A DNA stretch of 29,589 bases from a virus (lineage: Duplodnaviria > Heunggongvirae > Uroviricota > Caudoviricetes), in IMG/VR virus record IMGVR_UViG_3300037454_000478, positions 122,449-152,037 of that record; one strand, written 5' to 3'. A model generated the notes under the pieces. It did not search any database. It worked only from the letters and a program-made list of their open reading frames with translations, and was not told the DNA's origin. Shown here piece after piece: positions 2,380-22,619 of this stretch; the stretch's first letter is position 1; each line of letters starts with the position of its first letter. The translations under genes and the position numbers were made by a program.

Positions 2380-3342
2380 ATGAAAGATCTATTTAGCTAT
2401 ATAATGGAAGCCCTCCCGTACAATACGGCCAAGGAATACGTCAACATTAAACGTGATAAAAAGGCTGAAGGGTATATGATGGCGTTTTTCGATGAACTTG
2501 GTAAGTATGCCATGGAGCATGGTGGAAAATACTCACGCAACAAATACCGTATTTACCTTCCATACAAGGGGCCATCAATTGACGTTGCCGCCGATGATAG
2601 TGCTTCCGCCGGTAGCGCATCGGAATGGACAACCAATAGGGAGTGTATCAAAAACCTTGTATCCCTTGCCTTGGAAGAAAAAGGCCAGTGGATTGATAAG
2701 TGGGATTATATAGCAGGTACTGTGGATGTTGCCTTTAAAGACCAACAAGGTAACGTCAAAGTACGCCAGGGTCAAAAAATCGGTAGAATTATTTCAAAAG
2801 ATACTATACCTACCGCCCGGGGAAATGTGTCCGCATTGGATATATTCTCGAATGACCCGATTAGAATGGGTAAGAGCATCAGGTCTGCCATTAGTGGAGG
2901 GGATCTTTGGTTGGTAATTTCAAATCACGCCTACGATATTGCCGGTATGTCCACCAATAGAAATTGGACATCCTGCATGAATATCTTTAATGGTATAAAT
3001 AAGGAATATGTTGAAAACGATATCAAATACGGCACTCTCGTTGTGTATGTTATTGATAAGAATGATACCAACATCAATCAACCATACGGTCGTGTCCTTA
3101 TTAAACCATATAAACTCCAACGTACTGGTTATATTGGTACAGATGCTGCACCCATTATATATGCGCCGGAGCCAACAGTTTACTCCCCATACGTGGGTAT
3201 GAATCCGATTCGCGATTGGTTAAAGGGTATTTGCCAAGAACTTCAAGAAGGGGATGGAAAATTGAGAAGTCTCCGGGTATTATATAATGACAATTTCCAT
3301 GATAAATCCGACCCGGAGTTTCATGGAAGACGCCGTAAATAA
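2380..3342 (+). CDS. Hypothetical protein with capsid-targeting-like N-terminus (putative internal head protein)
   Basis: 320 aa ORF starting MKDLFSYIME|A; C-terminal half contains YDIAGMSTNRNWTSCM and YGRVLIKPY. Confidence 0.75.
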   Translation: MKDLFSYIMEALPYNTAKEYVNIKRDKKAEGYMMAFFDELGKYAMEHGGKYSRNKYRIYLPYKGPSIDVAADDSASAGSASEWTTNRECIKNLVSLALEEKGQWIDKWDYIAGTVDVAFKDQQGNVKVRQGQKIGRIISKDTIPTARGNVSALDIFSNDPIRMGKSIRSAISGGDLWLVISNHAYDIAGMSTNRNWTSCMNIFNGINKEYVENDIKYGTLVVYVIDKNDTNINQPYGRVLIKPYKLQRTGYIGTDAAPIIYAPEPTVYSPYVGMNPIRDWLKGICQELQEGDGKLRSLRVLYNDNFHDKSDPEFHGRRRK

Positions 3343-3354
3343 TTCAATGTCAAC

Positions 3355-5352
3355 ATGCCAATATCCGATGATCCAATACAGTCAGCTGGTCAGTTAAAGA
3401 ACAAGTCAACACTGAAAACTACATTTAACCCCATCAAGGAGGTTAAAGGCGATCAGCGTTCGCAGGCCATTCAGTGGACTTCTGCGATCTTGGATGTTGC
3501 AGTTAAAGGTCTTGGTAAGGGTAAGCGTCTTGTGGCCAACCCGTTCTATGAAAATAATGTCAAACTTCTCAAACCGGATCTTGTGTTTGTCCGTACCGCA
3601 TGGGAGGTTGCAGAATGGGAGCGTTGTGCCAATGATATATTCTATTTCATTGAGACTTATGCAAAAACCATGACCCCGTTGGGTATCCGTAACATCACCC
3701 TTCGTGAGTATCAAAAAAGATACCTCCAACTCCTTCTCGACAATCAGCTTACAATATACCGAGCCGCCCGTCAGTCCGCAAAAACAACATCCTCCGCTAT
3801 GTTCCTTTTGTGGTATATCCTATTCAATACCGATAAGAACGCCATCGTTCTTGGTAACAAAGGTAAGACCGCAAAGGAAATTCTATCCAAGGTGAAACAG
3901 GTATTCCTTGAAGTGCCATATTTCCTCAAGCCGGGTGTTGAAAAGTGGAATGAAAATGAGGTGGTGTTTGATAATGGGTGCCGTATTCTTACGGAAACCA
4001 CGGTTGCCGAACCGGCTATCGGTTTTACACTCCACTGTGTATTACTTGACGAGTTCGCCCATATCGCCCCTAATATTCAGGAGACCTTCTATTCCAATAT
4101 CTTCCCAACCATCGATGCCGCTAACGCAAAGTTGATGATTACCTCGACACAAAATGGCCCGGAGTTATTCTGTCGCTTGTTTGTGGCCGCTGAAAATGGT
4201 GAAAATGACTTCGCCCCATTCACAACCAACTGGGATGAGGTACCGAACTGGAACTCCGAAAAGAAGTGTTGGGAGAAACGTGATGAGGAATGGCGTAGAC
4301 GTAAGGTGGCCAACCTTGGCTCGGAAGAGGCATTTAATGAGCAATACGGATGTGAGTTCGCAGTAGCCACAAATGCCCTTATCCCACAACGTTTCCTTAC
4401 GAAGAAACAAATGAAGGTTAAACACTTCGTTAACAAGGAGATACTCGGTGTATCCCATGCAGATTGTTTTTACTGGCATCCGGATTATGACCCGATGGAT
4501 ATGCGGAAAGATTACATCGTATTCACCACGGATATCGCCACCGGCGTTCAGGAGGACTACACCAATGTACAGATTAATAAATTAATAGGTATCGGAGAGG
4601 ATCGCCAACCAATATTTGAAACGGTTGGATATTTCCGTACAAATATCCTTGATGATAAGGAATGTTGCCGTACTTTGGCCGAATTTATTGACCTTTATTG
4701 CCATCATAACAGGTATCTTTATAGTTTTGAGAGCAACCTTTATGGTGATTTGTGGAAATCGAACTTCAAACAGCTTGCTGAAGTTGAGTTCACCAAGAAC
4801 TTTACAATGGATAACTTCATTAAGTTCTATAATGAATCACTTACCCGTTTCCACTATGGTGTCCAAATAACCTATAAATCGAAACAACTTGGATGTAAGC
4901 TCTTCCGTACTGCTTATACGAAGAACTATATTATCAACGATTCCCATATATTCTATAATGAACTTAAATGCTTCTGTGATAAGAACGGTAACGGTACATA
5001 TGCGGCAATTTATGGTCATGACGATACTGTTATGTCCCAACTCCAACTCCCGCTTATATACGATACCATCCAATTCAAGGAGTTCCTTGAGGAGTTCATA
5101 TCCAATTCCGGTGTCGAGGATAAAGGACAAAATGAAAACTTCTTCCAAGACATTCAACCGGAGAGTAGTCAAATGCCACAAATTGGCGGCGTGAATTTGA
5201 ATAATTTCCTACCAAGTTCATTCCGTATGGCTCAATCCCAGGGCGGAGGATCGTTGTATGATCAAGGTATGGTTGAGGGTATCCCGGCACTCCCCGGGTA
5301 TCCGGGCTATAATGCCGGTGGAAATGAAGGAGGTACATTGTACGACTTTTAG
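3355..5352 (+). CDS. terL: Terminase large subunit (T4 gp17-like)
   Basis: Walker A-like ARQSAKTT, Walker B VLLDEFAH, motif III ITSTQNG, RNase H-like nuclease motifs DIATGVQEDY and GHDDTVMS, all matching gp17 order. Confidence 0.95.
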   Translation: MPISDDPIQSAGQLKNKSTLKTTFNPIKEVKGDQRSQAIQWTSAILDVAVKGLGKGKRLVANPFYENNVKLLKPDLVFVRTAWEVAEWERCANDIFYFIETYAKTMTPLGIRNITLREYQKRYLQLLLDNQLTIYRAARQSAKTTSSAMFLLWYILFNTDKNAIVLGNKGKTAKEILSKVKQVFLEVPYFLKPGVEKWNENEVVFDNGCRILTETTVAEPAIGFTLHCVLLDEFAHIAPNIQETFYSNIFPTIDAANAKLMITSTQNGPELFCRLFVAAENGENDFAPFTTNWDEVPNWNSEKKCWEKRDEEWRRRKVANLGSEEAFNEQYGCEFAVATNALIPQRFLTKKQMKVKHFVNKEILGVSHADCFYWHPDYDPMDMRKDYIVFTTDIATGVQEDYTNVQINKLIGIGEDRQPIFETVGYFRTNILDDKECCRTLAEFIDLYCHHNRYLYSFESNLYGDLWKSNFKQLAEVEFTKNFTMDNFIKFYNESLTRFHYGVQITYKSKQLGCKLFRTAYTKNYIINDSHIFYNELKCFCDKNGNGTYAAIYGHDDTVMSQLQLPLIYDTIQFKEFLEEFISNSGVEDKGQNENFFQDIQPESSQMPQIGGVNLNNFLPSSFRMAQSQGGGSLYDQGMVEGIPALPGYPGYNAGGNEGGTLYDF

Positions 5353-5403
5353 AATTTCCCCATTTTCCGGTATGTTTTGATGCCAAATTTCCCCATTTTC
5401 CGG
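5353..5403. repeat. Two identical 18-bp direct repeats AATTTCCCCATTTTCCGG (5353-5370, 5386-5403)
   Basis: Exact repeat with a 33-bp period, starting immediately after the terL stop codon. Confidence 0.9.
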
Positions 5404-5536
5404 AATTTTTGAAATAACTCTCCAAAATTGGCCTTTTTTGGGGGTTTATTCCTTAAAATTTGGAAAAATAACCGGTTTATTCACCGTTTTTATACCTATT
5501 TTTCAAATAAGCTTTAAAGTCCCGGCTTAAATGGTT

Positions 5537-5569
5537 GTTAATTTTTTGCGATACTGGTTTATATATAGG
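5537..5569 (+). promoter_or_regulatory. Phage promoter class GTTAA-N17-TTATATA, copy 1
   Basis: GTTAA 5537-5541, 17-nt spacer, TTATATATAGG 5559-5569, then AAAGGAAAGGAG (5574-5585) and ATG 5592. Confidence 0.7.
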
Positions 5570-5591
5570 TGTTAAAGGAAAGGAGTATCAT

Positions 5592-6053
5592 ATGAATCGT
5601 TACGTTTTCTACAATCCCAACCCCCTGCAGAAATATCATAAGGATGGCACCCCGATGCGATGGAAGTACTGTGACTGCACTATCCGTGCAATAAGTAAGG
5701 TCGAAAAATCCGATTGGGTGTCCGTGTACCGGATGCTGACCGAATATGGTCTCAATCACTACATGATGCCCAATGACCCGGAGTTGCTGATGAAAATATT
5801 CCCGGAGATGGGATATCTTCGCCATACGTATAAGAATACGGAGCGTATCACGCTTAAAAAGTTCGCTGAAACCCATAAGCAAGGTTCGTTCGTTGTCAAC
5901 ATGCCGGGACATGTCGTGGCCGTGGTGAATGGTAAGTACTATGACACGTTTGATTCCGGTGACTTCTACATTACTTCGTATTGGAAACAATATTGGGATA
6001 ATGAGGGGATGAACCCGGCACATATCAAACCCAGCATGTATGCCGGGAGTTAA
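5592..6053 (+). CDS. Putative papain-like (C39-like) cysteine peptidase-fold protein
   Basis: Start moved from the track TTG (5535) to ATG 5592 behind the SD-like motif. Motifs YNPNP, DCTIRAI (Cys), GHVVAV (His) and YYDTFDSG (Asp). Confidence 0.6.
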   Translation: MNRYVFYNPNPLQKYHKDGTPMRWKYCDCTIRAISKVEKSDWVSVYRMLTEYGLNHYMMPNDPELLMKIFPEMGYLRHTYKNTERITLKKFAETHKQGSFVVNMPGHVVAVVNGKYYDTFDSGDFYITSYWKQYWDNEGMNPAHIKPSMYAGS

Positions 6054-6100
6054 AAAATGTAATTTTCACCTATATTTCATTGTAATTAAACAATATCAAT

Positions 6101-6616
6101 ATGTCAAAGAAAACCGAAACCCTTACATGTTATCAATTGTGGAAGAGATACCACAATGCAAGCGAGCAAGGTACGGTGCTTCGCCGTAAATGGAAACATT
6201 TTGTAAGTGAACTCCACGACATTGAGCGCCGTATTAGTGTGGTGAAAGACGCTATCCGTAATGAATACGCGGAACTTCCCGCCAAAGATAGTGGGAAGGT
6301 TATCCCCACCGACATTCAGGATAAATTGCGTTTCCTCCGCGGTGAACTGGTTTCACTAACAGATCTCCGTAGGGAAACCCATTTCATCATTACACAGTAC
6401 AAGAAGTCCTGTGTGGAAGCAACAACCCGTGCCAACAGGTACAGCATGGCTTACCATCAAGTCCACATGATTGCGATAAGCAAGATGCAGGAAACCGTAA
6501 AAGATAGGCAGGAGTTCGTCAAGAATTTTGACTGTACGGTGACCACAAACAAGAACGGTGGTATCGAGGTTGTCTTGGTCAACAATGATGGTAACATAAA
6601 CAAATTCAGATTTTAA
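6101..6616 (+). CDS. Hypothetical basic coiled-coil protein
   Basis: 171 aa ORF with A-rich leader; tiles with its neighbours. Confidence 0.75.
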   Translation: MSKKTETLTCYQLWKRYHNASEQGTVLRRKWKHFVSELHDIERRISVVKDAIRNEYAELPAKDSGKVIPTDIQDKLRFLRGELVSLTDLRRETHFIITQYKKSCVEATTRANRYSMAYHQVHMIAISKMQETVKDRQEFVKNFDCTVTTNKNGGIEVVLVNNDGNINKFRF

Positions 6617-6618
6617 CC

Positions 6619-6987
6619 ATGAAAAAGTACAAAATGATATTGAATATCATTGGGCACAGGCTTGATGAAGAGGAACTCAAGGAGGCTTTTGAGCTGGCCA
6701 ACAAACACAGAGACACGCCGTACCATGAGGACTATAGTGAAACCGGCGGCAAAGGCTATGTCGATATCACCGCGAATCTCACACAGGTCGGTAATAACCT
6801 TAAACTGGAAATGATTTATTCCGGCGAAGGTGCCTCTTTTGATGAACGAGCGGCAAAGATAAATGAGATGGTCGAAACCGGCGAACTTCAAAAGTCACTT
6901 CTTTATGAAAGTGAGGCCGACATTGATAATCCGGATGCCATCAAAAAGGCGGATAAGATCACGGCAACTATCATACAAATCGGATGA
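6619..6987 (+). CDS. Hypothetical acidic protein
   Basis: 122 aa ORF 2 nt after the upstream stop and followed by a terminator. Confidence 0.75.
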   Translation: MKKYKMILNIIGHRLDEEELKEAFELANKHRDTPYHEDYSETGGKGYVDITANLTQVGNNLKLEMIYSGEGASFDERAAKINEMVETGELQKSLLYESEADIDNPDAIKKADKITATIIQIG

Positions 6988-7003
6988 TATTCCTTTTCCG
7001 TAT

Positions 7004-7039
7004 AAAAAGATACCGGGGACGTAAGTCTCCGGTATTTTT
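7004..7039. terminator. Bidirectional intrinsic terminator
   Basis: ATACCGGGGAC-GTAA-GTCTCCGGTAT stem with GNRA loop, flanked by A and T tracts, between convergent genes. Confidence 0.8.
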
Positions 7040-8066
7040 ATGTGGTCTTGCAGGCATCGACCATTTTATCATAAATCGGTTTTAGCTTCTTTGGGAGTAA
7101 TTTCCGGCACACGGAATCCACATTAAGTATTTCCGTATGTTCCATCACCATATCGTTGGTTTCCGTGATATACATCATGTTCGTATTGAAGTTATCATTG
7201 AGCTCCTTCAAAATATCCTTATAATCATCAACATGATTGGCCCGGATCTGTACTTCAACATAGTCGTCCTTTTTAATATCCAATGTTTCCCACTCCCGGA
7301 GCATATGTTCCGAGATGGTGAAGAAATGTATTGAGGATCTAATCGCGTGGAATTTAATGGCAATATCACCAACATGTATTCCGTCATATTCCCGGTTCAT
7401 TGTCCAAAATCCGCGCTCGGAATTGGTGTCCATGAAATCAATCGGATACGATGCTCCGGTTACCAATAGAAAATCCTCCCAGTTTATTGTAGGTTGATGG
7501 ATGTGTCCGGTGACCAACGGATAACCTTTGATCAATTTTCCGATTGCCGGATTCATGTGGAAAGGATCCGTATGGGTAAATATCATATTATTATGTGGAT
7601 CCTTATCTTTCAATATATCCGCCAGCATATCCGGGTTGTGGAATATGAACCACGGAATCATTATAATTCCGGCATATTCCGCCGGTTGGGTATTGACGTA
7701 GGTAATCCGGTTGAATTTGGGAAGCATAAGGGTGGATGAATAATTGTTTTCCGATTCCCATTGGTAGTAATAGTCGTGGTTTCCGCCTATAATGTACATA
7801 TGGGCCGTATTACGAGCTTCATTCATAACAGTATTCATCCGATCCATCAATTTTTCCACGGATTTATATACCATTGGATTGATGGATGAACGACTATCAA
7901 ATAAGTCACCCACATGTATCACTATGGTTTCGTCATAAGTCTTCACGGATTCCTCAACATACCGGATGATCTCCATAAATCCGTCCGTTTGGTGTTTTAG
8001 CCAAATCATGGAGTTATTCCGGGCACCAAAATGGGTGTCTCCGATAATTACTATATTTTGGGTCAT
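7038..8066 (-). CDS. gp47: Mre11/SbcD-like recombination nuclease (T4 gp47-like)
   Basis: Metallophosphoesterase motifs GDTHFG, GDLFD, GNHD, FTHTD and GHIH. Start moved to ATG 8066 (MTQNIVIIGDTH) because the upstream in-frame stretch overlaps a small ORF. Confidence 0.92.
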   Translation of the reverse strand: MTQNIVIIGDTHFGARNNSMIWLKHQTDGFMEIIRYVEESVKTYDETIVIHVGDLFDSRSSINPMVYKSVEKLMDRMNTVMNEARNTAHMYIIGGNHDYYYQWESENNYSSTLMLPKFNRITYVNTQPAEYAGIIMIPWFIFHNPDMLADILKDKDPHNNMIFTHTDPFHMNPAIGKLIKGYPLVTGHIHQPTINWEDFLLVTGASYPIDFMDTNSERGFWTMNREYDGIHVGDIAIKFHAIRSSIHFFTISEHMLREWETLDIKKDDYVEVQIRANHVDDYKDILKELNDNFNTNMMYITETNDMVMEHTEILNVDSVCRKLLPKKLKPIYDKMVDACKTT

Positions 8067-9894: not shown

Positions 9895-9925
9895 GTTAAT
9901 ATAGTGCAATTTCCGTTTATATAGG
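9895..9925 (+). promoter_or_regulatory. Phage promoter class GTTAA-N17-TTATATA, copy 2
   Basis: GTTAA 9895-9899, 17-nt spacer, TTATATAGG 9917-9925, AAAGGAAAGGA 9932-9942, ATG 9950. Confidence 0.7.
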
Positions 9926-9949
9926 TACATAAAAGGAAAGGAAAACACC

Positions 9950-10786
9950 ATGAATACCAAGGTTAACACAACGATCATCAAGGAGACCGAAAAAGCCTAT
10001 CAGCTCACCGTTGAGTACTGGACCTCCGACACTGCCCCTATCAAGACCGCCACTATGTGGGTTCCCAAGAGCCAATGCACCGTGGAGGCCGGCCAAGTCA
10101 CCGAGATCGCCGACTGGATCCTGAACCAGTGGGTTGCCCAACGCAATGATTATATGAAGAAAAACGGCTATTCCGACCATCGTCACTCCATCTGCTTCGA
10201 CATGGCTGAATACGAGCATATCAAGGCCGTGAAGAAGGCCAAGCAGGAGGCTTTTAAGGCCGAATTACAGGAAACCCTCGAGGCCACGGTCGCCTACGTG
10301 AAGCCCTACGCCGATCGTTACATGAGCGAGTTGGCCCATGATGCACAGTTCATCTATGACAACTATAAGGATTCCGGCATCCTTCCGGCCGAGATCGTGG
10401 ACGCCATCAAGGATATCGCCGCCGAGATCTCCAAGGTGTTTGGCTCCACCGCCGCTGTCGTTGGAATCAGCAAGGAGATCGCTGATTCTTGGTGGGACAC
10501 CTTCGTTGAGAAGCACAGTACATTTGAATCCGTTCGCGATTACCTTTGGTTTGAGCTCGGTGAACACCGCTGTGTGTACGGAGTCAACATTTTTGGATAC
10601 GAGACCCGTAACAAAATCAAGCTGGGTAACGGAATGCCGGTCAGCGAAAACATGCTTTCGCAGGTTATCGGTGGTACCACCGACCCCAAGGACACATTGC
10701 TTGGTAAGAAGTTCAAAAAGAACTGGGATCTCTACAACAGATTCATCGACATCGTGAACAGAATGTTTTACCTCACCAAAAAGTAA
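9950..10786 (+). CDS. Hypothetical protein (likely early); small N-terminal ETEKA...WVPKSQ domain
   Basis: 278 aa ORF with promoter and SD-like motif; C/G-ending codons are visibly preferred. Confidence 0.8.
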   Translation: MNTKVNTTIIKETEKAYQLTVEYWTSDTAPIKTATMWVPKSQCTVEAGQVTEIADWILNQWVAQRNDYMKKNGYSDHRHSICFDMAEYEHIKAVKKAKQEAFKAELQETLEATVAYVKPYADRYMSELAHDAQFIYDNYKDSGILPAEIVDAIKDIAAEISKVFGSTAAVVGISKEIADSWWDTFVEKHSTFESVRDYLWFELGEHRCVYGVNIFGYETRNKIKLGNGMPVSENMLSQVIGGTTDPKDTLLGKKFKKNWDLYNRFIDIVNRMFYLTKK

Positions 10787-12048: not shown

Positions 12049-12108
12049 TTTGAGAAATATATCATCCAAACCTATTATTTAGAAAATAAACCCAATGAAA
12101 TAGGTGGT

Positions 12109-12522
12109 ATGAAAAATCTCGAAACATGTATAATGGAAGCAAGTTTGGATAAGGATTTTCTCTATGATATCCTTATCTCCGTTATTGAGAATAACAGAAC
12201 GGTTTATGATAAATGCACGGCATTGGCCGCAGCTATCGCCAAGAAGGCAAACCGTGGTGAACGTCCTGATTTCAATTATCTTGCAGAATCTTCCGCAGTT
12301 GATAAACTCGTTGCGGATGCCTTCAAGATTTATGTTGCCGAGTACAGTTCCCCGGGTATGCGCCTTGGTACTGCCGAACGCAAGGAACTCAAAAAGTGGC
12401 TTGCCGCCAGGGTATTCCATATCCTTGAGGATGAAATGGATGGTCTCACAGAGGATGAAATCAAGGCCTTTGAAGATAACCCATATTACAGCGCTGGTAA
12501 CTTTGGCGACATCTATAAATAA
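12109..12522 (+). CDS. Putative internal head protein (CTS-like N-terminus)
   Basis: 137 aa, starts MKNLETCIME|A. Confidence 0.7.
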   Translation: MKNLETCIMEASLDKDFLYDILISVIENNRTVYDKCTALAAAIAKKANRGERPDFNYLAESSAVDKLVADAFKIYVAEYSSPGMRLGTAERKELKKWLAARVFHILEDEMDGLTEDEIKAFEDNPYYSAGNFGDIYK

Positions 12523-12533: not shown

Positions 12534-12995
12534 ATGAAATCACTATACGAATATATCGTGGGTGAATCCGCTCGTCCTGATTGGGGGCCTGCCGTGGAGG
12601 ATTTTTTGAAGAAGGTTAAAAAATATGTGGATCTCACCAAAAACCCATATGAAAGCGGCGGTTTCATTGAGTATCAGGCTAAATTCTGCCCTGTATCTTT
12701 ACGCGTAAGAACCGCATTATATATCAGCGAGCCACAGCTACCAAGATACACGTATATGCCTGCCAGTGCAGGAGAAGATGCCGATATACAAATCAGATTG
12801 TTGGATCATATCTCTCCGGCCAAGAATAATTTTGAAAAGGCTCTTTTCAATAAATTCAAGGAGCTTGGTGTAAGGGAAGCAAACCGGTGGAATTGTGCCC
12901 AGTGGGGTACATGGAAATTCATCCCAAGAGACCCGGACGAATTGGTTAAAATGACCAAAGTAGTGGTGGATCTTATGAAGAAATACAAACTATAA
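12534..12995 (+). CDS. Putative internal head protein (CTS-like N-terminus)
   Basis: 153 aa, starts MKSLYEYIVGE|S. Confidence 0.7.
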   Translation: MKSLYEYIVGESARPDWGPAVEDFLKKVKKYVDLTKNPYESGGFIEYQAKFCPVSLRVRTALYISEPQLPRYTYMPASAGEDADIQIRLLDHISPAKNNFEKALFNKFKELGVREANRWNCAQWGTWKFIPRDPDELVKMTKVVVDLMKKYKL

Positions 12996-13001: not shown

Positions 13002-13469
13002 ATGAAAACATTATACGAATGCATCAATGAAACACTTGGCTATCCGGAGATCATCAAACCGGGGTTGGATAAATTCTGCCGTCAAATATCCAAAACATTG
13101 GAAAATGTGGATGTCGAGGAGTTTTTCAAACTTTTTGGGGAAACCTATAAAGACCAACCAAGAAAACCGGATTCGTGGCTTCGTGGTGGTACCGGATGTT
13201 TTTCGGATGATGCAACGTGGGCACTCGTGCATGGGTACTTGTGCTATGACAATTATGGTGATTATGTGAGCTTCTTACACAAGCCAACAGATGCACAACT
13301 TGCCAAGGCAACGGAATACTTGGAGAAATCGGTAAAGAAGCTTTTGGGAGAGGACAAGAAACTTTGGAAATCATTTGATACAAAAGTCAGGGTATATGTC
13401 CTCAAATACAACTCATATTACCAACCAAAAGGTACTTACGGTATTGGAGTTGACTTTACCTTTAAGTAA
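13002..13469 (+). CDS. Putative internal head protein (CTS-like N-terminus)
   Basis: ATG 13002 preferred to the track TTG at 12996; starts MKTLYECINE|T. Confidence 0.7.
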   Translation: MKTLYECINETLGYPEIIKPGLDKFCRQISKTLENVDVEEFFKLFGETYKDQPRKPDSWLRGGTGCFSDDATWALVHGYLCYDNYGDYVSFLHKPTDAQLAKATEYLEKSVKKLLGEDKKLWKSFDTKVRVYVLKYNSYYQPKGTYGIGVDFTFK

Positions 13470-13544: not shown

Positions 13545-14231
13545 ATGGGAATATTTGATAAAGCAAGACAATGGCGTGAAAAACGTAAGGCCATAAAGCA
13601 AAACAAGACAAATCAAAAGGTCGAGGAGAACCTCCCACAGGAGGCCGGGCCGAATTATTCCCTTATTAAGCAGATCAAGAAAACCCCATACTATAGCAAA
13701 TCACCTTCGGATGGCGATTCAAATGCACGTAAGTTTATCACCGATCATGTAGCCGCCGGCGGTGCCGGAAATATTGTTCCGGGTCAACTTATACTTTTTG
13801 AATATTTCGAGCCAAAAACAAAGGAGGAACTTGAATATTATGATGCTTCACCTTGCACAATATTCTTTAATGTGATCAATACAAAGGATGGAAAACGTGT
13901 CCTTGGTTTCAATATACATTATTACCCTCCAAAAATGAGACAGCAGGTAATGAACCGGATATTTGAGATATACAAACCAATATATACCAAATACTTCAAA
14001 TCCGGAGCCAAAGCATCCGTGGATGCATTTGATTATAGGTATCTCATTGCCGCATTGGAAAAGGCTGGGCTCGGATTTGGTGTCCGTATGTATATCCCCA
14101 ATCTTATCGGGCAGATATGGAAAGTTCCGCCACAAATGTGGCATATTGCGGTATTTACGGAAGGATGGTTTAAGAAACAAACCCGTACCGCAATATTAAG
14201 GTACTGGAACCAATGGAGAAAAAAGCACTAA
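13545..14231 (+). CDS. gp2: DNA end protector protein (T4 gp2-like)
   Basis: GQLILFEYFEPKTK...YYDASP...LGFNIHYYPP...R pattern and C-terminal RMY...W, as in gp2 homologues. Confidence 0.8.
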   Translation: MGIFDKARQWREKRKAIKQNKTNQKVEENLPQEAGPNYSLIKQIKKTPYYSKSPSDGDSNARKFITDHVAAGGAGNIVPGQLILFEYFEPKTKEELEYYDASPCTIFFNVINTKDGKRVLGFNIHYYPPKMRQQVMNRIFEIYKPIYTKYFKSGAKASVDAFDYRYLIAALEKAGLGFGVRMYIPNLIGQIWKVPPQMWHIAVFTEGWFKKQTRTAILRYWNQWRKKH

Positions 14232-15675: not shown

Positions 15676-17625
15676 TTATTCTTCATCATCCTTCTTGGGT
15701 TTTTTCTTATTACCTTTATCGCCCTTTTTGGATGGTTTTTTCTTGCCTTTTTCCGGTTCGTCATTACCGTCCGATTTCTCGGATGAAGCGAAACCTTCGA
15801 CAACCGGTCGGTTATTCCTTTTATCTCTTAACTTCATCTGCTCCAATATCATGGATTTGACCTCTTCAAGCTCCTGCCTGATGGATTCAAATTCACCTCC
15901 ACTTTCATCATCGCTACCGGCAAGGTTAAGTTGCTCAATTTCCTCCTGCTTGTACTTTTCATTGAGCTTGATATCAGCATCCGACAAGTGTAAGTACTTC
16001 TGTACAAGGAATTTACTCGAGAAGTATTTGATTTCGTTACCCTCCTTGTCCATATCAATCATAGACTCCTTCATGTTTTGGATGAACTCAACGCGTTTAT
16101 CCATTAACTGAATCTGCATAAGTTCCTCGAAAAGGTTATATGATTTATATTGGACTTGGATACATGTTTGGAAATCCTTGACCGTTTGCATATCAGGGAT
16201 ATCCAAGCAGAGTTGTAACCACATTGGTTTAATGATGATTTGGGAGAATACATTACGTTGGCGGGCAACATAACGGCCAAAATCAATCTCCGAACGAAGG
16301 TAACTATCGGCATCCGTACCGAACCAGTTTTGGTCATTATCGTGGTCGAAACGATTTATAGGAATGTTGGAAACACCATATAGTTGATTCTTGAAGTATT
16401 TCAAGTAATCACTATCCATCAATTCCGGGCCATCTCCACCAAGGGTATCGATTTCCGGTGTACCGGCCTCGGATTCCGGCATCCAATACTCTTTGTTAAA
16501 TGGCATTTGCGCCTGTCCGTTGATGGTGAGCTCGCCAGTATCGGAGATAAATTTAATATCCTCACGATAACGATTCATGGCGGCGTTAAGGGTTTGGGAA
16601 CCACGGGCACGGTTCATACCTTTCACCGGAATAGTGAATTTCGTACGATATTGTGCGTTGGTAACCACCCAAATGATTTGTGCCTGCTCAATGATACGAT
16701 AAATATTATACGGGCGGACAAGACGTTCGAGATATGATAAACGCGAAATCGACTGTGTTTCTTGGAATTGGATATAAATGACCTGTGAATCAAGGAGTTT
16801 ACGTTCTTTACCATTGATACCGGCGAATTGAATCCAATACCATTTATCGTTTTCAAACTTCTTGGTAAGCGTAGCCGGATCGATAGGAACAAGACCAATG
16901 ATTTGGGTTGGCTTCTCCAACGAATCGTATACGATCTCAAACGCAATGATACCTTCAATCAACCAACGTTTGAAATCATCCCATGCCTTTGTACGCCATC
17001 CGAGCATACGATAGAAGCGTTTGAATGACTTGGTAATCGAATCATTGATTTTGTTTTGGATATCCTTGGAGAAATCAATCAAATCATTGTCATCAATATA
17101 CGGCTCCATGAAATACACATAGTTGGAATCGTATACGATGGATTCGTTTGTCATCTTATCAAGAATGTCCTCCAATTCCGGCTGCATGGCCAAGGCACGA
17201 AGTTGATCCCTCTTGGTGGTGAAATCCTTTTCAAAGAAATTACGATCCTTGTTGTCTTTCACCTTCCATGCGGAAAGAAGTTGATTGTATAGGGATGATG
17301 TGACTTCTTGCTTATCTTTCGGAAGAAGGTCTTTATCAGCCGGAAGGGCGCGCATGTTTTTAATCACCTGTTCATCCAACGACATACCCAAACGAGCCAT
17401 GTTCGAGAAGAATTTATTGATGGTTCGTTTGGATTTCTTCTCCTTCGCCGCAATTTCCGCCTGTGAGTATTTAGGTACATACCTCATCGTTTCCTTAAAA
17501 CCGGGAATGTTTGTGGTTTGACGATGATGGTCGGCTTCCGTCACATAGTCAAGAAGTCCCATATCATGGGCTTCATACAATGTTCTGAACCCAAATTCGG
17601 CGTCCTGTGATATATTGCTTTCCAT
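15676..17625 (-). CDS. gp20: Portal protein (T4 gp20-like)
   Basis: RPYNIYRIIEQAQIIWVVTNAQYRTKFTIPV, EYWMPESEAGTPEIDTLGG and YFKNQLYGVSNIPINR align with gp20 motifs; charged C-terminal tail. Confidence 0.9.
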   Translation of the reverse strand: MESNISQDAEFGFRTLYEAHDMGLLDYVTEADHHRQTTNIPGFKETMRYVPKYSQAEIAAKEKKSKRTINKFFSNMARLGMSLDEQVIKNMRALPADKDLLPKDKQEVTSSLYNQLLSAWKVKDNKDRNFFEKDFTTKRDQLRALAMQPELEDILDKMTNESIVYDSNYVYFMEPYIDDNDLIDFSKDIQNKINDSITKSFKRFYRMLGWRTKAWDDFKRWLIEGIIAFEIVYDSLEKPTQIIGLVPIDPATLTKKFENDKWYWIQFAGINGKERKLLDSQVIYIQFQETQSISRLSYLERLVRPYNIYRIIEQAQIIWVVTNAQYRTKFTIPVKGMNRARGSQTLNAAMNRYREDIKFISDTGELTINGQAQMPFNKEYWMPESEAGTPEIDTLGGDGPELMDSDYLKYFKNQLYGVSNIPINRFDHDNDQNWFGTDADSYLRSEIDFGRYVARQRNVFSQIIIKPMWLQLCLDIPDMQTVKDFQTCIQVQYKSYNLFEELMQIQLMDKRVEFIQNMKESMIDMDKEGNEIKYFSSKFLVQKYLHLSDADIKLNEKYKQEEIEQLNLAGSDDESGGEFESIRQELEEVKSMILEQMKLRDKRNNRPVVEGFASSEKSDGNDEPEKGKKKPSKKGDKGNKKKPKKDDEE

Positions 17626-17766
17626 GTAGATATATTTGCTTTATAATGATTCTTTATAATAATAAGGTTATTTAATCAGCTACTTTAGGGTTGGGTGAAA
17701 ATCAAATTAAAATACCTTAATGGAGTATATGAATGATGTATTTTTAATGCAAATAAATACATATTT

Positions 17767-18798
17767 ATGACTGATAAATACTCTAATGATTGCGCCATTT
17801 TAATCACTGGTGTTGCCGGATTGTTAGGATATAATTTTGCAAAGTGGCTTCTTGATAATACCATGCATCACGTTATTGGTATTGATGCCATGTATGATTG
17901 GGGCAACCACAACGAAGTACCTCATAATGAAAGGTACAAATTTTATCAATTGGATCTTACGAAACATTATGAGGAACTTGATGGGATTGTTAAGCAAAAT
18001 AACGTCAAAATCATATACCATTTTGCCAGCTACGCCGCCGAAGGTTTATCTCCTTTCATGCGTAGGTTTAATTACATGCAAAACACCATCGCATCAACCA
18101 ACGTAATCAATACCTCAATCAAATATGGTTGTAAACTTATATTCACCAGTTCCATGTCCGTATATGGGCATGGTAAATGCAAGGACTCCAAACTACTCTT
18201 TGATGAAAATGATAGGCCAGCACCTATTGACCCATACGGGATTGCAAAGTGGGGTATTGAGCAGGATATCCGGGTTGCCGGCGAGCAACATGGTTTGGAA
18301 TGGGCCATCATTCGCCCGCATAATGTATTTGGTATCGGACAAAACGTTAACGACCGATATCGTAATGTACTTGGTATTTGGATGCACCAAGCGGTGATCG
18401 GTAAACCTTTTACCATTTATGGTGATGGCGAACAGGAACGTGCATTTACCTATATAGATAACATCCTTGAACCACTGTATAAGGCGAAGGATCTTAAAAA
18501 TGAAGTGATCAACCTCGGTGGTATAAATGGTATTACGCTCAATGAAGCCTGTGAGGTAATGAAAAAAGTCACCGGAAAAACAGAAGTGGTTCACCTCGAA
18601 GCCCGGCATGAGGTTAAAAGAGCCATCCCGGATCCGGCCCGTTCCATCATACGTCTTAATTACAAGGATATTGTTGGGTTTGAAGAAGGCGTACGTAGAA
18701 TGTGGGAATGGGTGAATAATGAACATTGTGTTGCTGACTGGTATGAATGGGATGCTTTTGAATTGAATAAAGGGATCTATTCATACTGGAAGAAGTAA
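17767..18798 (+). CDS. NAD-dependent nucleotide-sugar epimerase/dehydratase (extended SDR)
   Basis: GxxGxxG (TGVAGLLG), SSMSVYG, YGIAK (YxxxK) and RPHNVFG. Confidence 0.92.
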   Translation: MTDKYSNDCAILITGVAGLLGYNFAKWLLDNTMHHVIGIDAMYDWGNHNEVPHNERYKFYQLDLTKHYEELDGIVKQNNVKIIYHFASYAAEGLSPFMRRFNYMQNTIASTNVINTSIKYGCKLIFTSSMSVYGHGKCKDSKLLFDENDRPAPIDPYGIAKWGIEQDIRVAGEQHGLEWAIIRPHNVFGIGQNVNDRYRNVLGIWMHQAVIGKPFTIYGDGEQERAFTYIDNILEPLYKAKDLKNEVINLGGINGITLNEACEVMKKVTGKTEVVHLEARHEVKRAIPDPARSIIRLNYKDIVGFEEGVRRMWEWVNNEHCVADWYEWDAFELNKGIYSYWKK

Positions 18799-18815
18799 CC
18801 TTCACATCAGCGCAT

Positions 18816-18852
18816 AAAAAAAAGGAACTCGCGAGAGTTCCTTTTCTTTTTG
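18816..18852. terminator. Bidirectional intrinsic terminator
   Basis: AAAAGGAACTC-GCGA-GAGTTCCTTTT with GNRA loop, between convergent genes. Confidence 0.85.
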
Positions 18853-18866
18853 TATGTGGCGTACAA

Positions 18867-19436
18867 TTAAGCGTCATCATCATCTGCCCAGTCGGAAGCG
18901 AACTTAACAGTGATATCGACAAGATCTTGAGCATTGTAATCAAGATCCTCAACACCGGCAATACCACCAACCATGATCATATCATGGAAGAGGATTTGAC
19001 GGTAAATATCACCGGCGCGGTTGGCGATCACGATCTTGAACCAATCTGCGCAATATTCTTCTTTAAGGGTTGTTTCGCCGGTTGCCTTGTTGTAACAAAG
19101 GTTGTTCCATGCACGGAAGATCTTATAGATGTAGTTGTCCGTACGCTTACGAAGGTTAAGCGAAATTGTAACCGTGATTTCATGGGCCGTATCATCGAGC
19201 TTGGATTGGAGATACGTACGGGTGGTACCCATGAACTTTTGTGTTGTCTTCTCAGGGCCTTTATCGAGAGTTCCAAGACCTTCCACCTTCTGCACCTGTT
19301 CCGTTAGAACTGCAACATCGCTGCCAAAACGTGCCATAAGTGCCTCCGGGATGGTGAAGTACATCTCGAACATATTTTTGTAGTTAGGATCCTGACGATT
19401 GTTTCCTGCCTGACTATTCTTAATGTGTGGAAGCAT
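18867..19436 (-). CDS. gp19: Tail tube protein (T4 gp19-like)
   Basis: 189 aa; N-x-FE-x-YF, Q-x-FMG-x-x-R-x-Y, WNNL and terminal F-x-x-DW, as in T4-like tube proteins. Confidence 0.75.
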   Translation of the reverse strand: MLPHIKNSQAGNNRQDPNYKNMFEMYFTIPEALMARFGSDVAVLTEQVQKVEGLGTLDKGPEKTTQKFMGTTRTYLQSKLDDTAHEITVTISLNLRKRTDNYIYKIFRAWNNLCYNKATGETTLKEEYCADWFKIVIANRAGDIYRQILFHDMIMVGGIAGVEDLDYNAQDLVDITVKFASDWADDDDA

Positions 19437-19496
19437 AATTCTATTTGTTTTTTCTTTAATAGTATAATAACTTACATTTTGTAACTTGTCAAATAA

Positions 19497-19955
19497 TTAC
19501 GCATTAATACCATCATCACATACTCCAACAACTCCGTATCGTATTGTTGACTCCGGTGTTACCACGGTAGATACCATTGGGATTTCAATGGCCTTTACCG
19601 GGGTATCATTGTCCTGTCTACGGGAAATTGCAATGGCAAATGCACCATTATGAGCGGTTGTGCAGTATTCGAGGTTATTATGCGACATTACCTCATTCCA
19701 ACTATGTGGTAAAACGGTATTTGGAGCGGTAGCAAGTCGACGATTGTATACAATTTGTTCCCACAAGGACTTGGTTAACTTGGTACCGGTAACAATATAT
19801 ACTCCATCATCCATCAATTGCATATGGGTATCGGTTAATGCGCCCCAATGCATGTTATACCAACGGGTAAGTGTATCGTTTGTACCGATATGTTGGTTTG
19901 TATTTTGGGAAGCAATCAAGGGATGCTCCTTCATTATATCCTGAAATGTTTTCAT
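19497..19955 (-). CDS. Hypothetical protein (weak CTS-like start)
   Basis: 152 aa, MKTFQDIMKE|H; tiles within the operon. Confidence 0.65.
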   Translation of the reverse strand: MKTFQDIMKEHPLIASQNTNQHIGTNDTLTRWYNMHWGALTDTHMQLMDDGVYIVTGTKLTKSLWEQIVYNRRLATAPNTVLPHSWNEVMSHNNLEYCTTAHNGAFAIAISRRQDNDTPVKAIEIPMVSTVVTPESTIRYGVVGVCDDGINA

Positions 19956-19988
19956 CAGTTTTTAAGTTTCTTTGTGGGATGGGATTGT

Positions 19989-20342
19989 TTAGGCGCCGAA
20001 ACTCTTGTTGAGGATACCAACGAGCTTACCCCATTCACCCTTTTCGACATCTTCTTTATTGTCGGAAAGAATGCCATCGAGGGTCTTGTTCATCTTGTCC
20101 TTGTCGAGCTTGTCACCAAAAACAACCTTGAACTTGTTTTCAGCGTAATCGCGGAAACTCTTCTCGTCCTTGATGGATTCACTGACCTTTTCCTGTTCCT
20201 CCTCTTCGGATTCACAGCCCATGCGGATGGCCTTCAAGCGTTCTTGTTCCTCTTCTTCGTTCTCCTTTTTGAAAGTGCCACAACCAGGGCATTCCTTACC
20301 TTCCATAAGGGATTCGCTTATAAATTCAACCAAACTTTTCAT
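19989..20342 (-). CDS. Acidic putative prohead core or internal protein
   Basis: MKSLVEFISE|S, Glu runs and further candidate [ILV]-x-E sites. Confidence 0.7.
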   Translation of the reverse strand: MKSLVEFISESLMEGKECPGCGTFKKENEEEEQERLKAIRMGCESEEEEQEKVSESIKDEKSFRDYAENKFKVVFGDKLDKDKMNKTLDGILSDNKEDVEKGEWGKLVGILNKSFGA

Positions 20343-20368
20343 ATTCTTATGATCTTTATTTCCTTTTA

Positions 20369-20755
20369 TTATGCGGACATATTGTCCAAAAGTTTCTTAA
20401 TTTCCGGTTTACCACCTTTCACACTATATATGGTGTTTGTGAGAAGATCAATGATCTCTTCCAAAACATCAATACGTTTGTTTTTAGGTAGGTCACCCCA
20501 GTAGAACGTAAATTTGACGCATTCTTCTCCGTCAACGTATTTGATTTCACATTTGACTTCGGTATCAAGTATCACACCACAATCGTTAAGATTTGCCGGG
20601 TACTTTTTATAGAATGCGTTGGCTATAGCCTTGTAATCATTCTTGGAGAGATCATCATTGGGAATCCAAGCACCATTATCGATGAAATCGATCGTGGTAC
20701 CCATTTGCCACTGGGTTTGCATGGCTTCCGAGATATATTCAGCTAATGATTTCAT
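20369..20755 (-). CDS. Putative internal head protein (CTS-like N-terminus)
   Basis: 128 aa, MKSLAEYISE|A; TAATG coupling with the upstream gene. Confidence 0.7.
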   Translation of the reverse strand: MKSLAEYISEAMQTQWQMGTTIDFIDNGAWIPNDDLSKNDYKAIANAFYKKYPANLNDCGVILDTEVKCEIKYVDGEECVKFTFYWGDLPKNKRIDVLEEIIDLLTNTIYSVKGGKPEIKKLLDNMSA

Positions 20756-21183
20756 TATTCACTTGTTTCTTTTTCTTTATAAATAATAACAGGTTTATTT
20801 TGCGATCGTTCAAGTGCATTTCGAAGGTTATCATTTTCGGATTGTAAGTTTCTATTTGAACGTTCGCAAGCGCGTAAACTGCCATTAAGTATCAAAATCG
20901 AATCATGTAACTCCTGATTGCTTTGTTGTAGAAAATCAATGGTTGTTGCAGAGTGTTTGTAAGTATGTAGATCTCCATTAAGTATCAGGATGGAATCATG
21001 CAATTCGTGATTGGATTGCACAAGAGAATCAATGACCTCCCGATTACCTTTTACCTCGAATAAATGATTTTGGTTGCGGGAGCACTTCGAACATGTTTGC
21101 ATACAGAACAAACATATAAATATGATGGCCACCCACCTCCATGTTTTCAACGGATTTTGTTTAAGTATGTTTAATAGTTTCAT
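20755..21183 (-). CDS. Membrane-anchored coiled-coil protein with an internal 31-aa-period duplication
   Basis: N-terminal TM segment WRWVAIIFICLFC; IDSLVQSNHELHDSILILNGDL and IDFLQQSNQELHDSILILNGSL repeats; ATGA overlap with the sigma gene stop. Confidence 0.75.
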   Translation of the reverse strand: MKLLNILKQNPLKTWRWVAIIFICLFCMQTCSKCSRNQNHLFEVKGNREVIDSLVQSNHELHDSILILNGDLHTYKHSATTIDFLQQSNQELHDSILILNGSLRACERSNRNLQSENDNLRNALERSQNKPVIIYKEKETSE

Positions 21184-22619
21184 TCCGCTACAATATTATG
21201 TGTTTTGAAGTTCTCGGAAAGCTCACTCATCATATTGATGAGGTCGATATCCGACTTGCGGCGGATACATTCCGTTGGATATACATTTTCAAGAAAATTC
21301 ACAACAAAGCCACGGTTGCCATCATAATGCTCATCAATATAGTTGATGTCATTTTCAAGGCAGCTGATAATGAAATCCTGCCCGGCTTCACTTAATGGTT
21401 GGATTGCACTACCCATGGCATTATTGAATACCTTACGGTTTGCCCAACGGGTACATTCCTGAAGCATGATAAATACGTTATCCGTAATCATGGCATCCAT
21501 GATTGTTTGTGCGGTATGGGTTGCAATAAGTGATTCGGAGTACATGGAAAGGAGATCCATGAGGAGATTAACAGTCCTCTTATCGGATTTGAGGAATGTA
21601 ATGATGTGTTTGATATACATGGAAACAGCCGCACCTGTGATACCCATTTCCTTGGCAATCTCAACACCGGACATTTGTTTATACCCACGGAGGCCAAAAT
21701 ATTTGTAGAACACACTTGCGGTACGAACGGAGAACTTATCATCAATAAGTTTATACACCTTATCCCATTGGGTTTTGGTGTCTCCTTTGAATGCATCATT
21801 ATCGCTTGATAGTGCAGTCATTCTATCGACCAACGTTTGGCCTTCATCATCCAGTGTTTGATCCACGGAGACCGTGTTGAAATTGCCTTTGGTATTACCT
21901 GCGGCCTTATTCTTTTCGTATTCATATTGGGAAATCCTAACGGTACGGGATAATTCATTAATATCGTTAAGGATTTGGAAGCGGATACGCCACCCAGCAT
22001 ATTGTTTGAACGTAAGGTTCTTTTGTTTCTTGACCTCTGCTTTTGCCTCCTTATCAAGTCCATCCTCCATGTCAACAAATTCATCCGGACGGTGATAATC
22101 ACTCATAGCTTTGGTGAGACCCAAATAACCGGCACTAATCAAACTATTCCAATCCAGTCCGGAACCACGATACTTGCTTGCAATTGCGGTTACAAGGCTG
22201 GCGTATTGACGGGCACAACGCTCACGTCCTTTTTCAGTTTCAAGGTCAAGTGTGATATCACCAATATCACGTTTGCCTGATATAACATTATTGAAATCCT
22301 CGGCGGTCATCAATTGGGGGAGACCCTTGATTTCAGGTTTGCATTTGCCGGCAAGTTTTCGGATTTCTTCATATATTGCCGGGGAGCCACCATACTGGGC
22401 GATTATCGCCTTAATCCTTGATGACGATCCATTGATGATTTCATCAAGTACCTCGCCACTTGTTATACCAAGCTGGATTGTATTAACGAGGATTTGGAGA
22501 TATTCTTTTGATATTGATTTGCTTCCACGAACTATCTTTTCAAATTCCTTGATCTGTTCGATGGTGAGCTTGTTCCACTCCCTACGGGACTCCGCAATTA
22601 TCTCGGTAAATAACTTCAT
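21180..22619 (-). CDS. Sigma70-family RNA polymerase sigma factor with N- and C-terminal extensions
   Basis: Region 2: YASLVTAIASKYRGSGLDWNSLISAGYLGLTKA...TFKQYAGWRIRFQI...SRTVRI. Region 3.2-like VSVDQTL. Region 4 HTH: YFGLRGYKQMSGVEIAKEMGITGAAVSMY. Confidence 0.88.
   Translation of the reverse strand: MKLFTEIIAESRREWNKLTIEQIKEFEKIVRGSKSISKEYLQILVNTIQLGITSGEVLDEIINGSSSRIKAIIAQYGGSPAIYEEIRKLAGKCKPEIKGLPQLMTAEDFNNVISGKRDIGDITLDLETEKGRERCARQYASLVTAIASKYRGSGLDWNSLISAGYLGLTKAMSDYHRPDEFVDMEDGLDKEAKAEVKKQKNLTFKQYAGWRIRFQILNDINELSRTVRISQYEYEKNKAAGNTKGNFNTVSVDQTLDDEGQTLVDRMTALSSDNDAFKGDTKTQWDKVYKLIDDKFSVRTASVFYKYFGLRGYKQMSGVEIAKEMGITGAAVSMYIKHIITFLKSDKRTVNLLMDLLSMYSESLIATHTAQTIMDAMITDNVFIMLQECTRWANRKVFNNAMGSAIQPLSEAGQDFIISCLENDINYIDEHYDGNRGFVVNFLENVYPTECIRRKSDIDLINMMSELSENFKTHNIVAE

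Follow-up and report, generated by a model that had tools for sequence, protein, structure and literature searches.

A T4-like N-terminal decapeptide on at least 31 proteins of a distant T4-type jumbo phage: a probable family of capsid-targeting propeptides

Introduction

In bacteriophage T4, the capsid-targeting sequence (CTS) consists of the first ten residues of the internal protein IPIII, in which residues 4 and 7 serve targeting and residues 8 and 10 serve processing by gp21 (PMC9026906). The internal proteins IPII and IPIII share the same first ten residues (MKTYQEFIAE), which gp21 cuts after Glu10. Here we analyse a stretch of 29,589 nucleotides (IMG/VR record IMGVR_UViG_3300037454_000478, positions 122,449 to 152,037; hereafter the window), which is the final 29.6 kb of a 152,037-bp viral contig and in which an initial annotation had noticed eight T4-CTS-like N-terminal decapeptides on otherwise unrelated proteins. 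The phage is a distant T4-type jumbo phage, probably of Bacteroidota, related to the phages PAU, pT24 and MA9V-2. We conclude that the eight N-termini probably belong to a set of at least 31 T4-type capsid-targeting propeptides that would be cut after Glu10 and are carried by modular cargo.

Other described systems resemble this arrangement in part. The further T4 proteins processed by gp21, namely gp67, gp68, gp22, gp23, gp24, Alt and gp21 itself, follow a common hydrophobic-x-E cleavage logic and lack an MK-T/S-L decapeptide. One of them, Alt, is a large enzyme that is injected and modifies the action of RNA polymerase. Alt is processed at both ends (PMC9026906). The phiKZ-like giant phages have capsid and protease lineages that differ from those of the present phage. 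Their prohead cleavage motif is S/A/G-x-E, and their propeptides are, to our knowledge, long and dissimilar, with no common N-terminal decapeptide that we know of. For phiKZ, 201phi2-1 and SPN3US, large heads are described that hold dozens of packaged proteins, many of which are cut by a prohead protease after Glu and ejected into the host (PMC5694885, PMC7411985 and PMC10052503). N4 and phiKZ-like phages deliver whole RNA polymerases, an idea of virion packaging that is treated in PMC7824862. We found no paper on tags of the CTS type outside T4 and its close relatives.

Results

A decapeptide family far beyond chance

Translation reproduced each of the eight quoted peptides exactly, at the first ATG of eight well-supported open reading frames (ORFs). 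The carriers are called T1 to T8 below, the fourth always being written gene T4 to keep it apart from the phage. Coordinates are those of the window unless the contig is named, a slash within a tag marks the putative cut, and scores come from a position-specific scoring matrix (PSSM) trained outside the window.

2380..3342, plus strand: T1, 320 residues, directly upstream of the large terminase gene; tag MKDLFSYIME/A at 2380-2409, 14.4 bits
12109..12522, plus strand: T2, 137 residues, acidic; tag MKNLETCIME/A at 12109-12138, 10.6 bits
12534..12995, plus strand: T3, 153 residues, basic; 11-residue variant MKSLYEYIVGE/S at 12534-12566, 14.5 bits as read and 18-20 bits with one residue skipped
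13002..13469, plus strand: gene T4, 155 residues; tag MKTLYECINE/T at 13002-13031, 20.1 bits
19497..19955, minus strand: T8, 152 residues; weak tag MKTFQDIMKE/H at 19926-19955, 4.7 bits against a null maximum of 4.0
19989..20342, minus strand: T5, 117 residues, very acidic, one CxxC pair; tag MKSLVEFISE/S at 20313-20342, 20.0 bits
20369..20755, minus strand: T6, 128 residues, acidic; tag MKSLAEYISE/A at 20726-20755, 21.0 bits
21180..22619, minus strand: T7, 479 residues, predicted sigma-70-family protein; tag-like start MKLFTEIIAE/S at 22590-22619

As the initial annotation had stated, Glu is found at position 10 and Ile at position 8 in seven of the eight peptides. A gp21-type site, I-x-E-[A/S/T], closes six of them; in T3 it lies one residue later, and T8 has M-K-E-H in its place. 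No ninth member was found among all ATG, GTG and TTG starts of the window, where the next best start reached 7.1 bits on an ORF of 14 codons.

The scan against shuffled controls that had been proposed for these peptides clearly separated the tag from background. With a first PSSM, built from the seven gap-free window peptides with Met left unscored, 27 ATG-ORF starts of the 152-kb contig scored at least 9 bits, as against practically none in twenty order-5 Markov shuffles of the contig (0-1 matches at 7 bits; 1 in total at 10 bits). To avoid circularity, a second PSSM was trained on 16 tags, all from outside the window. It gave 10.6 to 21.0 bits for six window members and at most 4.0 bits for the 176 untagged gene starts, all of which were outscored by the window members. 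Counted contig-wide, including one-residue-shift variants and variants with an altered position 10, 31 of about 207 genes (about 15%) are tagged. The PSSM also found 54 matches in 544 kb of sequence from 31 closer-relative loci, compared with 4 in 609 kb from 49 distant-relative loci. The tag pattern is far beyond chance.

Information content peaks at tag positions 2, 4, 6, 7, 8 and 10 (3.4 bits at position 4, 2.6 at 7 and 2.9 at 8; Glu at position 10 was a selection criterion of the tag set), is low at positions 5 and 9 and falls to background past position 12. Leu4 is written with TTA (11), CTA (8), CTT (5), CTC (3) and TTG (2), Ile8 with ATA, ATC and ATT, and the DNA upstream of the tagged genes is not conserved. 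Taken together, the codon spread and the position profile point to selection on a peptide of about 12 residues, and on this evidence the tag is selected at the protein level. Its conserved residues are spaced as in an amphipathic helix. A secretion or lipoprotein signal was ruled out, the tag being acidic and without a hydrophobic core.

Likeness to the phage T4 tag

When a PSSM made from this phage's own tags was applied to the 374 ATG-ORF starts of T4 60-109 kb, the top two ranks went to IPII and IPIII, at 15.9 bits, and the third to IPI, at 4.1 bits; the other T4 head proteins scored between -17 and -3.5 bits. The positions critical in the T4 CTS (4, 7, 8 and 10) are conserved in the tags of this phage, and one contig peptide, MKTLQEYINE, shares 7 of 10 residues with that of IPII and IPIII. 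In both phages a small residue follows Glu10 and the bodies behind the tag are unrelated and fast-changing. By these scores, the resemblance to the T4 tag is quantitative and specific. The two differ at position 4, which is Leu here and Tyr in the T4 CTS, and above all in number, with three tagged proteins in T4, at least 31 in this contig and 38 in G001, a 239.8-kb relative that is rated 100% complete. The cargoes here, unlike the T4 carriers, are often acidic, reach 479 residues and include one predicted sigma factor. The setting also departs from T4 in its probable Bacteroidota host and in an incomplete contig where no protease gene was found.

Dissimilar bodies and their turnover

The initial annotation had found no visible similarity among the bodies, and this was borne out: with the first 14 residues removed, no BLASTP match at E≤0.01 was obtained among the 31 proteins. 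Their lengths range from 75 to 479 residues and their isoelectric points (pI) from 4.5 to 9.4. Pfam and PHROGs are nearly silent on them, the exceptions being the sigma-like protein, a HAD-like hint and an ORF with DUF3008; in keeping with a modular tag, many of the bodies are orphans, and the others include members of the sigma-70 and T1 families and a HAD-like protein. The DUF3008 ORF (contig 53794-55047(-); L138:1794-3047) has this domain at residues 3-56, an internal MRSLFDYIVE/A at residue 59 and an orphan body of 350 residues, and may represent a gene fusion or, alternatively, two separate genes run together in the reading. A RimK-type ATP-grasp protein extended by a long C-terminal part (contig 35458-37146(-); L137:9458-11146), whose gene is preceded by TTATTAT, leads an operon of five tagged genes (contig 33258-35456).

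Synteny with the window extends to the closest relative, L008 (portal 79% identical), which retains the sigma gene, T5 and T8 while lacking T6, T2, T3 and gene T4, a pattern of gain and loss that represents the turnover expected of accessory cargo. T2, T3 and gene T4, in this order, lie directly upstream of a gp2-like gene; no Pfam or PHROG family was found for any of them, and all three are missing from the syntenic region of L008. T6, which is missing in L008 between its two neighbours, behaves as a gene-sized insertion or deletion. Where orthologues exist, they keep the tag while the tag itself drifts, as seen in the sigma family, the T1 family, T5 and contig gene 35118-35456. The T5 orthologue in L008 (69% identity) starts with MKSLTDYVKE/S, and contig gene 35118-35456 (MKPLQEYLNE) pairs with MKQLTESLFD in G001. 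The T8 orthologue in L008 begins MKTFADLMQD, with Asp at position 10, and the counterpart of T8 in G001 has no canonical tag. A complex prediction for the L144 protease domain with residues 1-40 of T6 scored 0.00 and was not used as evidence either way.

Two modelled carriers, T1 and the sigma-70-family protein T7

Most of the 130 homologues of T1 keep a leader that closes in hydrophobic-x-E and is followed by A/S-L, in variants such as the PAU-like MKLYQLFE/AL or the MA9V-2-like MRFQKFINE/AL, and a minority begin right at the post-tag sequence. In the AlphaFold2 (AF2) model of T1 (predicted local distance difference test (pLDDT) 86.8; predicted template modelling score 0.82), residues 1-9 fall below 50. 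The tag hangs outside the modelled fold, which matches the expectation for a removable propeptide, and the same placement outside the folded part is predicted for the other modelled protein, T7. Foldseek found no match for the T1 fold in the PDB at E≤0.001, VIA-align returned GNAT-like matches alone, at Z 5-5.8 and below the trustworthy level, and an Atlas search for a function returned nothing named. With tblastn, T1 had no match in PAU, pT24, MA9V-2 or G001. Relatives of the T1 body occur in unrelated jumbo phages (Erwinia phages of the Alexandra and Yoloswag types, Pseudomonas Lu11, Ralstonia RsoM2USA and Dickeya JA29), and DUF4116 or HEAT repeats are found on distant homologues. In a public annotation of the same contig, T1 begins at Met9 (312 residues), which illustrates that automatic annotation can remove the tag.

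T7 is the first gene of a same-strand run that extends to the probable tail tube gene, a run that it shares with T6, T5 and T8. Its residues 128-346 match phrog_351, which is annotated 'RNA polymerase sigma factor', with an E-value of 2e-14, and the protein gives 21.8 bits with Sigma70_r2, which is under the 24-bit cut-off, and 13.7 bits with Sigma70_r4. It has 104 homologues of similar length, many of which carry PF04542; PF04542 or PF04545 is precomputed on many. In the AF2 model (pLDDT 76.7), residues 1-4 lie below 50, the body is confident and residues 4-11 are helical. The top 50 Foldseek matches of this model were all primary sigma factors (probability 1.0), and it aligned with sigmaA and sigma70 chains over 340-400 columns at E 2e-5. 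By homology and modelling, T7 has the sigma-70 regions 2 (for core binding and the -10 element) and 4 (for the -35 element), with promoter binding as its predicted function.

The start of T7 is conserved to a similar degree as its core. In an alignment of 32 homologues, the most distant of which is 32% identical, Glu10 is present in 97% of the sequences and Phe4 in 81%, and conservation is 0.61 for the first 11 residues, 0.62 for the sigma core and 0.42 for residues 12-120. Starts within the family vary (MKLFTEIIAE, MKSFTEQILE, MLKFSERILE, MNNFSNIIE), nearly all finish in hydrophobic-x-E plus a small residue, and the tag is retained in most of the 104 homologues. With a borderline score of 5.3 bits, membership of T7 in the tag family is probable, not certain. 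G001 has a second, partial match to T7 at 221146-221790 (30% identity over 240 residues), and the relatives may encode two sigma-family proteins.

Phage lineage, head genes and the tags of relatives

The following genes place the window in a T4-type setting.

3355..5352, plus strand: large terminase subunit (TerL); phrog_5989 at 1.7e-43, tblastn match to pT24 TerL
13545..14231, plus strand: T4 gp2-like DNA end protector, untagged here; phrog_429 at 1.9e-23
15676..17625, minus strand: portal protein; tblastn matches to the portals of PAU (38% identity, 1e-92), MA9V-2 and pT24
18867..19436, minus strand: probable tail tube protein; tblastn match to the pT24 gene two genes past the sheath gene

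All eight tagged genes of the window fall within the blocks of TerL, gp2, portal and tube genes, and the window also holds SbcCD-like nuclease genes. The tail tube candidate matches phrog_32623 (2.9e-33), a family without a named function, and occupies the position of T4 gene 19, after the sheath gene in pT24. An untagged gene for 142 residues (20755-21183(-)), which sits between the sigma gene and T6 and is kept in L008, probably encodes a membrane protein, given its N-terminal hydrophobic stretch. Elsewhere on the contig, a Gp23-family capsid gene (contig 24047-25879; PF07068, 78.9 bits, above the cut-off) joins the gp20-type portal, so that both marks of a T4-type head are present. By its capsid, the phage stands nearest to Sphingomonas phage PAU, Tenacibaculum phage pT24, Chryseobacterium phage MA9V-2, the Lak phages and further huge phages known from uncultured material; the host of PAU is actually a Sphingobacterium (PMC3738902). 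No Shine-Dalgarno sequences are visible upstream of the genes, which fits a Bacteroidota host. No relative at the DNA level turned up in the phage collection when the window and the capsid locus were searched with megablast and blastn.

In relatives within this lineage, a gp21-type protease accompanies the gp23-type capsid, as in T4. PF03420 (T4 gp21 family, Peptidase S77) finds one gene each in the four complete relatives PAU, pT24, MA9V-2 and G001 and occurs in further IMG/VR relatives; when IMG/VR was scanned with a profile, 20 contigs proved to carry the protease, but the three closest partial relatives were not among them. In the relatives' proteases, the His and Ser motifs align with those of T4 gp21, and their N-terminal hydrophobic-x-E site aligns with T4 LIE-9. 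The G001 protease is fused to a repeat-rich, scaffold-like tail and begins with a tag-like site. In the relatives a nucleotidyltransferase gene stands a short way upstream of the protease gene. Its homologue in the contig, at 52026-52637, has no protease gene behind it; a terminator hairpin comes next, and then converging genes. This ORF ends in MKSLYEYLMMK and a stop, and a long hairpin follows (contig 52600-52720; L138:600-720). We rejected the idea of a working C-terminal tag, as L144 and L145 start a full tagged gene at this point; by this comparison the peptide is the truncated leftover of a deleted tagged gene.

Tags of the same general kind recur in the relatives, each with its own variant. 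About 20 genes of PAU start with MK[ST][LI]xxL[YF]E[AS], and they are concentrated near those for portal, protease, scaffold and capsid. Among them are the annotated scaffold gp152 and two genes deposited under the label 'internal capsid protein'. MA9V-2 has the type MKNFFSFINEA, with one such gene between portal and protease, where T4 has genes 67 and 68, and its capsid N-terminus contains SEFINEA. In G001, 38 starts score 7 bits or more. A large MKSLVESLFD subfamily is among them, with about 25 genes (156-226 residues; L090-L101; for example 211800-214070 and 226011-234211) that start with MK[ST]L[VQRA]ESLFD[KD][DN]. This subfamily keeps the first L-x-E only and may have arisen by genuine expansion of paralogues. 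In pT24, candidates are few. A strict degenerate DNA pattern of the tag, run on PAU, pT24, MA9V-2, LR756500 and G001, gave a single match (in G001), the pattern being too narrow.

The gp2-like protein, which is untagged in the window, begins with MRSLLDFLSE or MKSLLDFLGE in distant loci (L035:9146-9889, L036:535-1278 and L044:5099-5848), where its gene adjoins the portal gene. In T4, gp2 acts within the head. Near their N-termini the capsid proteins have a K-W-x-x-hydrophobic-x-E stretch in common, and the cut point of the PAU capsid was placed beside ALME. The PAU capsid is matured from 585 to 520 residues, as determined by N-terminal sequencing (PMC5646251), so that proteolytic head maturation in this clade is experimentally grounded.

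Upstream motifs and possible timing

An A/T-rich motif recurs about 25-60 nt upstream of the portal gene, the tube gene and several tagged genes of the window.

2322..2328, plus strand: TTATTAT promoter-like motif, 58 nt upstream of T1
12073..12079, plus strand: TATTATT motif, 36 nt upstream of T2
17656..17665, minus strand: TTATTATTAT motif upstream of the portal gene
19464..19470, minus strand: TTATTAT motif upstream of the tube gene
20782..20789, minus strand: TTATTATT motif upstream of T6

TTATTAT lies within 70 nt upstream of 10 of the 31 tagged genes and 12 of the 176 others (Fisher p 2.6e-4), and the latter 12 include the portal gene, the tube gene, two ORFs that carry tag relics at the C-terminus and the gene that heads the five-tag operon. 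In G001 the same motif is found ahead of the genes for capsid, portal, protease, tube and sigma factor. This distribution suggests that TTATTAT, a short and A/T-rich motif to which we give modest weight only, is a candidate late promoter element and that the tagged genes are co-expressed with virion genes. A second upstream pattern, which consists of TTTATATA and then, immediately ahead of the ATG, AAAGGAAAGGA, is seen at about 9900-9949 and 24460-24511, ahead of 9950-10786 and 24512-24985, and recurs at many small plus-strand genes of the contig; it is probably another promoter class with an unusual purine-rich ribosome site.

Discussion

The reading that we favour, and hold to be likely, is that the eight N-termini of the window and their contig-wide fellows are T4-type capsid-targeting propeptides. 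The initial annotation had spoken of a modular head-targeting tag. Modularity is well supported by the unrelated bodies, and the sequences also show protein-level selection, a quantitative match to the T4 tag and T4-type head genes in the lineage; head targeting itself we infer by homology with IPII and IPIII, as we do docking, cleavage, packaging and injection. By this analogy, residues 1 to 10 or 12 would form a short amphipathic helix with Leu4, Tyr7, Ile8 and Leu12 on one face and Glu6 and Glu10 on the other. The helix would dock the newly made protein onto the scaffolding core during prohead assembly, and a gp21-type protease would then cut after Glu10, at [I/L]-x-E before a small residue. 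The freed body would remain in the head and leave with the DNA at the next infection. The cargo would be unusually large and consist of fast-changing, mostly orphan proteins together with a conserved sigma-70-family factor, which would arrive in the next host ready to redirect RNA polymerase.

Several observations weigh against this reading. No prohead protease was found in the 152-kb contig by PF03420, by tblastn with the proteases of four relatives or by a clade-specific hidden Markov model (best E 0.23), and no scaffold gene was recognised there. The missing protease is excusable only because CheckV rates the contig 68% complete; the simplest reading, which is an assumption, is that its gene sits in the missing third of the genome. 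A literature search found no virion proteome for PAU, pT24, MA9V-2 or this phage. Many tagged bodies are acidic (pI 4.5-6), unlike the basic internal proteins of T4. Internal [LI]xE[AS] sites have an observed-to-expected ratio of 0.75 in tagged and 1.67 in untagged proteins, but these are small numbers and the control motif [LI]xD[AS] behaves in the same way, so that there is no specific depletion of sites. With the PSSM trained outside the window, the sigma-like gene (5.3 bits) and 19497-19955 (T8; 4.7 bits) pass narrowly, and T8 is a doubtful, weak member of the family. Four other ORFs hold Met-bearing tag-like peptides internally or at their end, at least one of which is a deletion relic and not a working tag. 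A sigma factor needs no packaging to act, and some tagged proteins may be disposable parts of the prohead core and not injected effectors.

The last point can be extended to most of the carriers, which would then be targeted to the prohead as core parts like T4 gp67, gp68 and gp22, to be degraded and expelled. The tagged scaffold gp152 of PAU and several small tagged neighbours of its protease gene speak for such a role, as do the scaffold-like tail and tag-like start of the G001 protease and the fact that most carriers are small orphans without enzyme domains. Set against this, there would be no precedent for as many as 31-38 distinct scaffold parts, the set of carriers changes fast between close relatives, unlike essential assembly parts, the sigma factor and T1 are predicted to be well folded and globular with few internal [LI]xE[ASGT] sites, and in T4 the same tag marks injected proteins. 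We therefore consider it unlikely, if by no means negligible, that most carriers are disposable.

A shared helix might also serve outside the head, by binding a partner such as RNA polymerase, a chaperone or a timer protease, or by timing degradation. The sigma-like carrier, as a sigma factor, would act in the cytoplasm, and packaging is deduced for a contig in which neither a protease nor a scaffold gene was identified. Under such a role, however, the near-identity to the T4 CTS at the same key positions would be a coincidence; the lineage has T4 head-assembly genes, the PAU carriers cluster around the portal, protease, scaffold and capsid genes, and the variant of every lineage still closes in a gp21-type hydrophobic-x-E. 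A use away from the head thus appears improbable, more so than the disposal of core parts.

It is also conceivable that the similarity resides in the DNA or mRNA, either as an A/T-rich unstructured translation start or as a recombination junction at which cassettes are shuffled. Most of the conserved residues do use A/T-rich codons (AAA, TAT, ATA, GAA), no Shine-Dalgarno sequence was seen upstream and Bacteroidota lack Shine-Dalgarno pairing, the truncated tag at the end of contig 52026-52637 marks a deletion at a cassette border, and tagged genes are gained and lost as units between relatives. But Leu4 is drawn from both Leu codon families, CTC and CTT included, Ile8 uses three codons, positions 5 and 9 vary freely, and 176 untagged genes under equal translation constraints lack the pattern. 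A recombination role may be a side effect of 30 conserved bases, and would leave the selection at the amino-acid level unexplained, which makes an origin in the nucleic acid very improbable. Descent of all carriers from one old paralogous family, the N-terminus being the last conserved piece with no targeting role, is least credible of all, since the carriers range from 75 to 479 residues and include sigma-70-family, HAD-like and T1 proteins (the T1 body recurring in unrelated jumbo phages), lack pairwise similarity and lose conservation sharply at residue 12, even though about 25 G001 genes (156-226 residues) share a longer start, MKSLVESLFDKDL, that resembles true paralogue expansion.

Capsid-targeting propeptides on modular cargo therefore remain our preferred account, and what would be new compared with T4 is a scale of 15% of the genes, another host phylum and a sigma factor as cargo. 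The initial annotation had further suggested functions in anti-defence or host takeover; the putative sigma cargo fits host takeover, and no anti-defence domain was found. A tagged sigma factor in a late context raises the idea of a phage that injects a sigma subunit. If packaged, it would bring in the phage's own promoter-recognition device and free the early genes from host promoters, as in N4 and phiKZ-like phages, with the difference that it would borrow the host core enzyme in place of a delivered polymerase. We know of no description of an injected sigma-70-family subunit that uses the host core enzyme. More tentatively, and with rather less confidence than we place in the tag itself, we propose that a clade of Bacteroidota phages (PAU-like, including gut and rumen phages) has expanded the T4 CTS to 30-40 proteins per genome, with cargo that includes a virion-delivered sigma-70-family factor. 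Were this so, the whole injected proteome could be read from sequence through one decapeptide, and the delivered sigma factor would reprogramme the host core RNA polymerase at infection, a mode of delivery that would be undescribed for any phage.

PAU and MA9V-2 are two cultured relatives with tag variants of their own, so that the reading is open to experiment. If the tag works as in T4, it would allow the proteins that are packaged and injected to be recognised from sequence in a large group of uncultured phages from gut, rumen and environment, and would provide a ready-made packaging tag for the engineering of Bacteroidota phages. Each genome would then offer dozens of candidate first-minute effectors, in anti-defence or host takeover, that are invisible to domain searches, and the T4 head-loading signal would prove to be conserved between phages of Proteobacteria and Bacteroidota.

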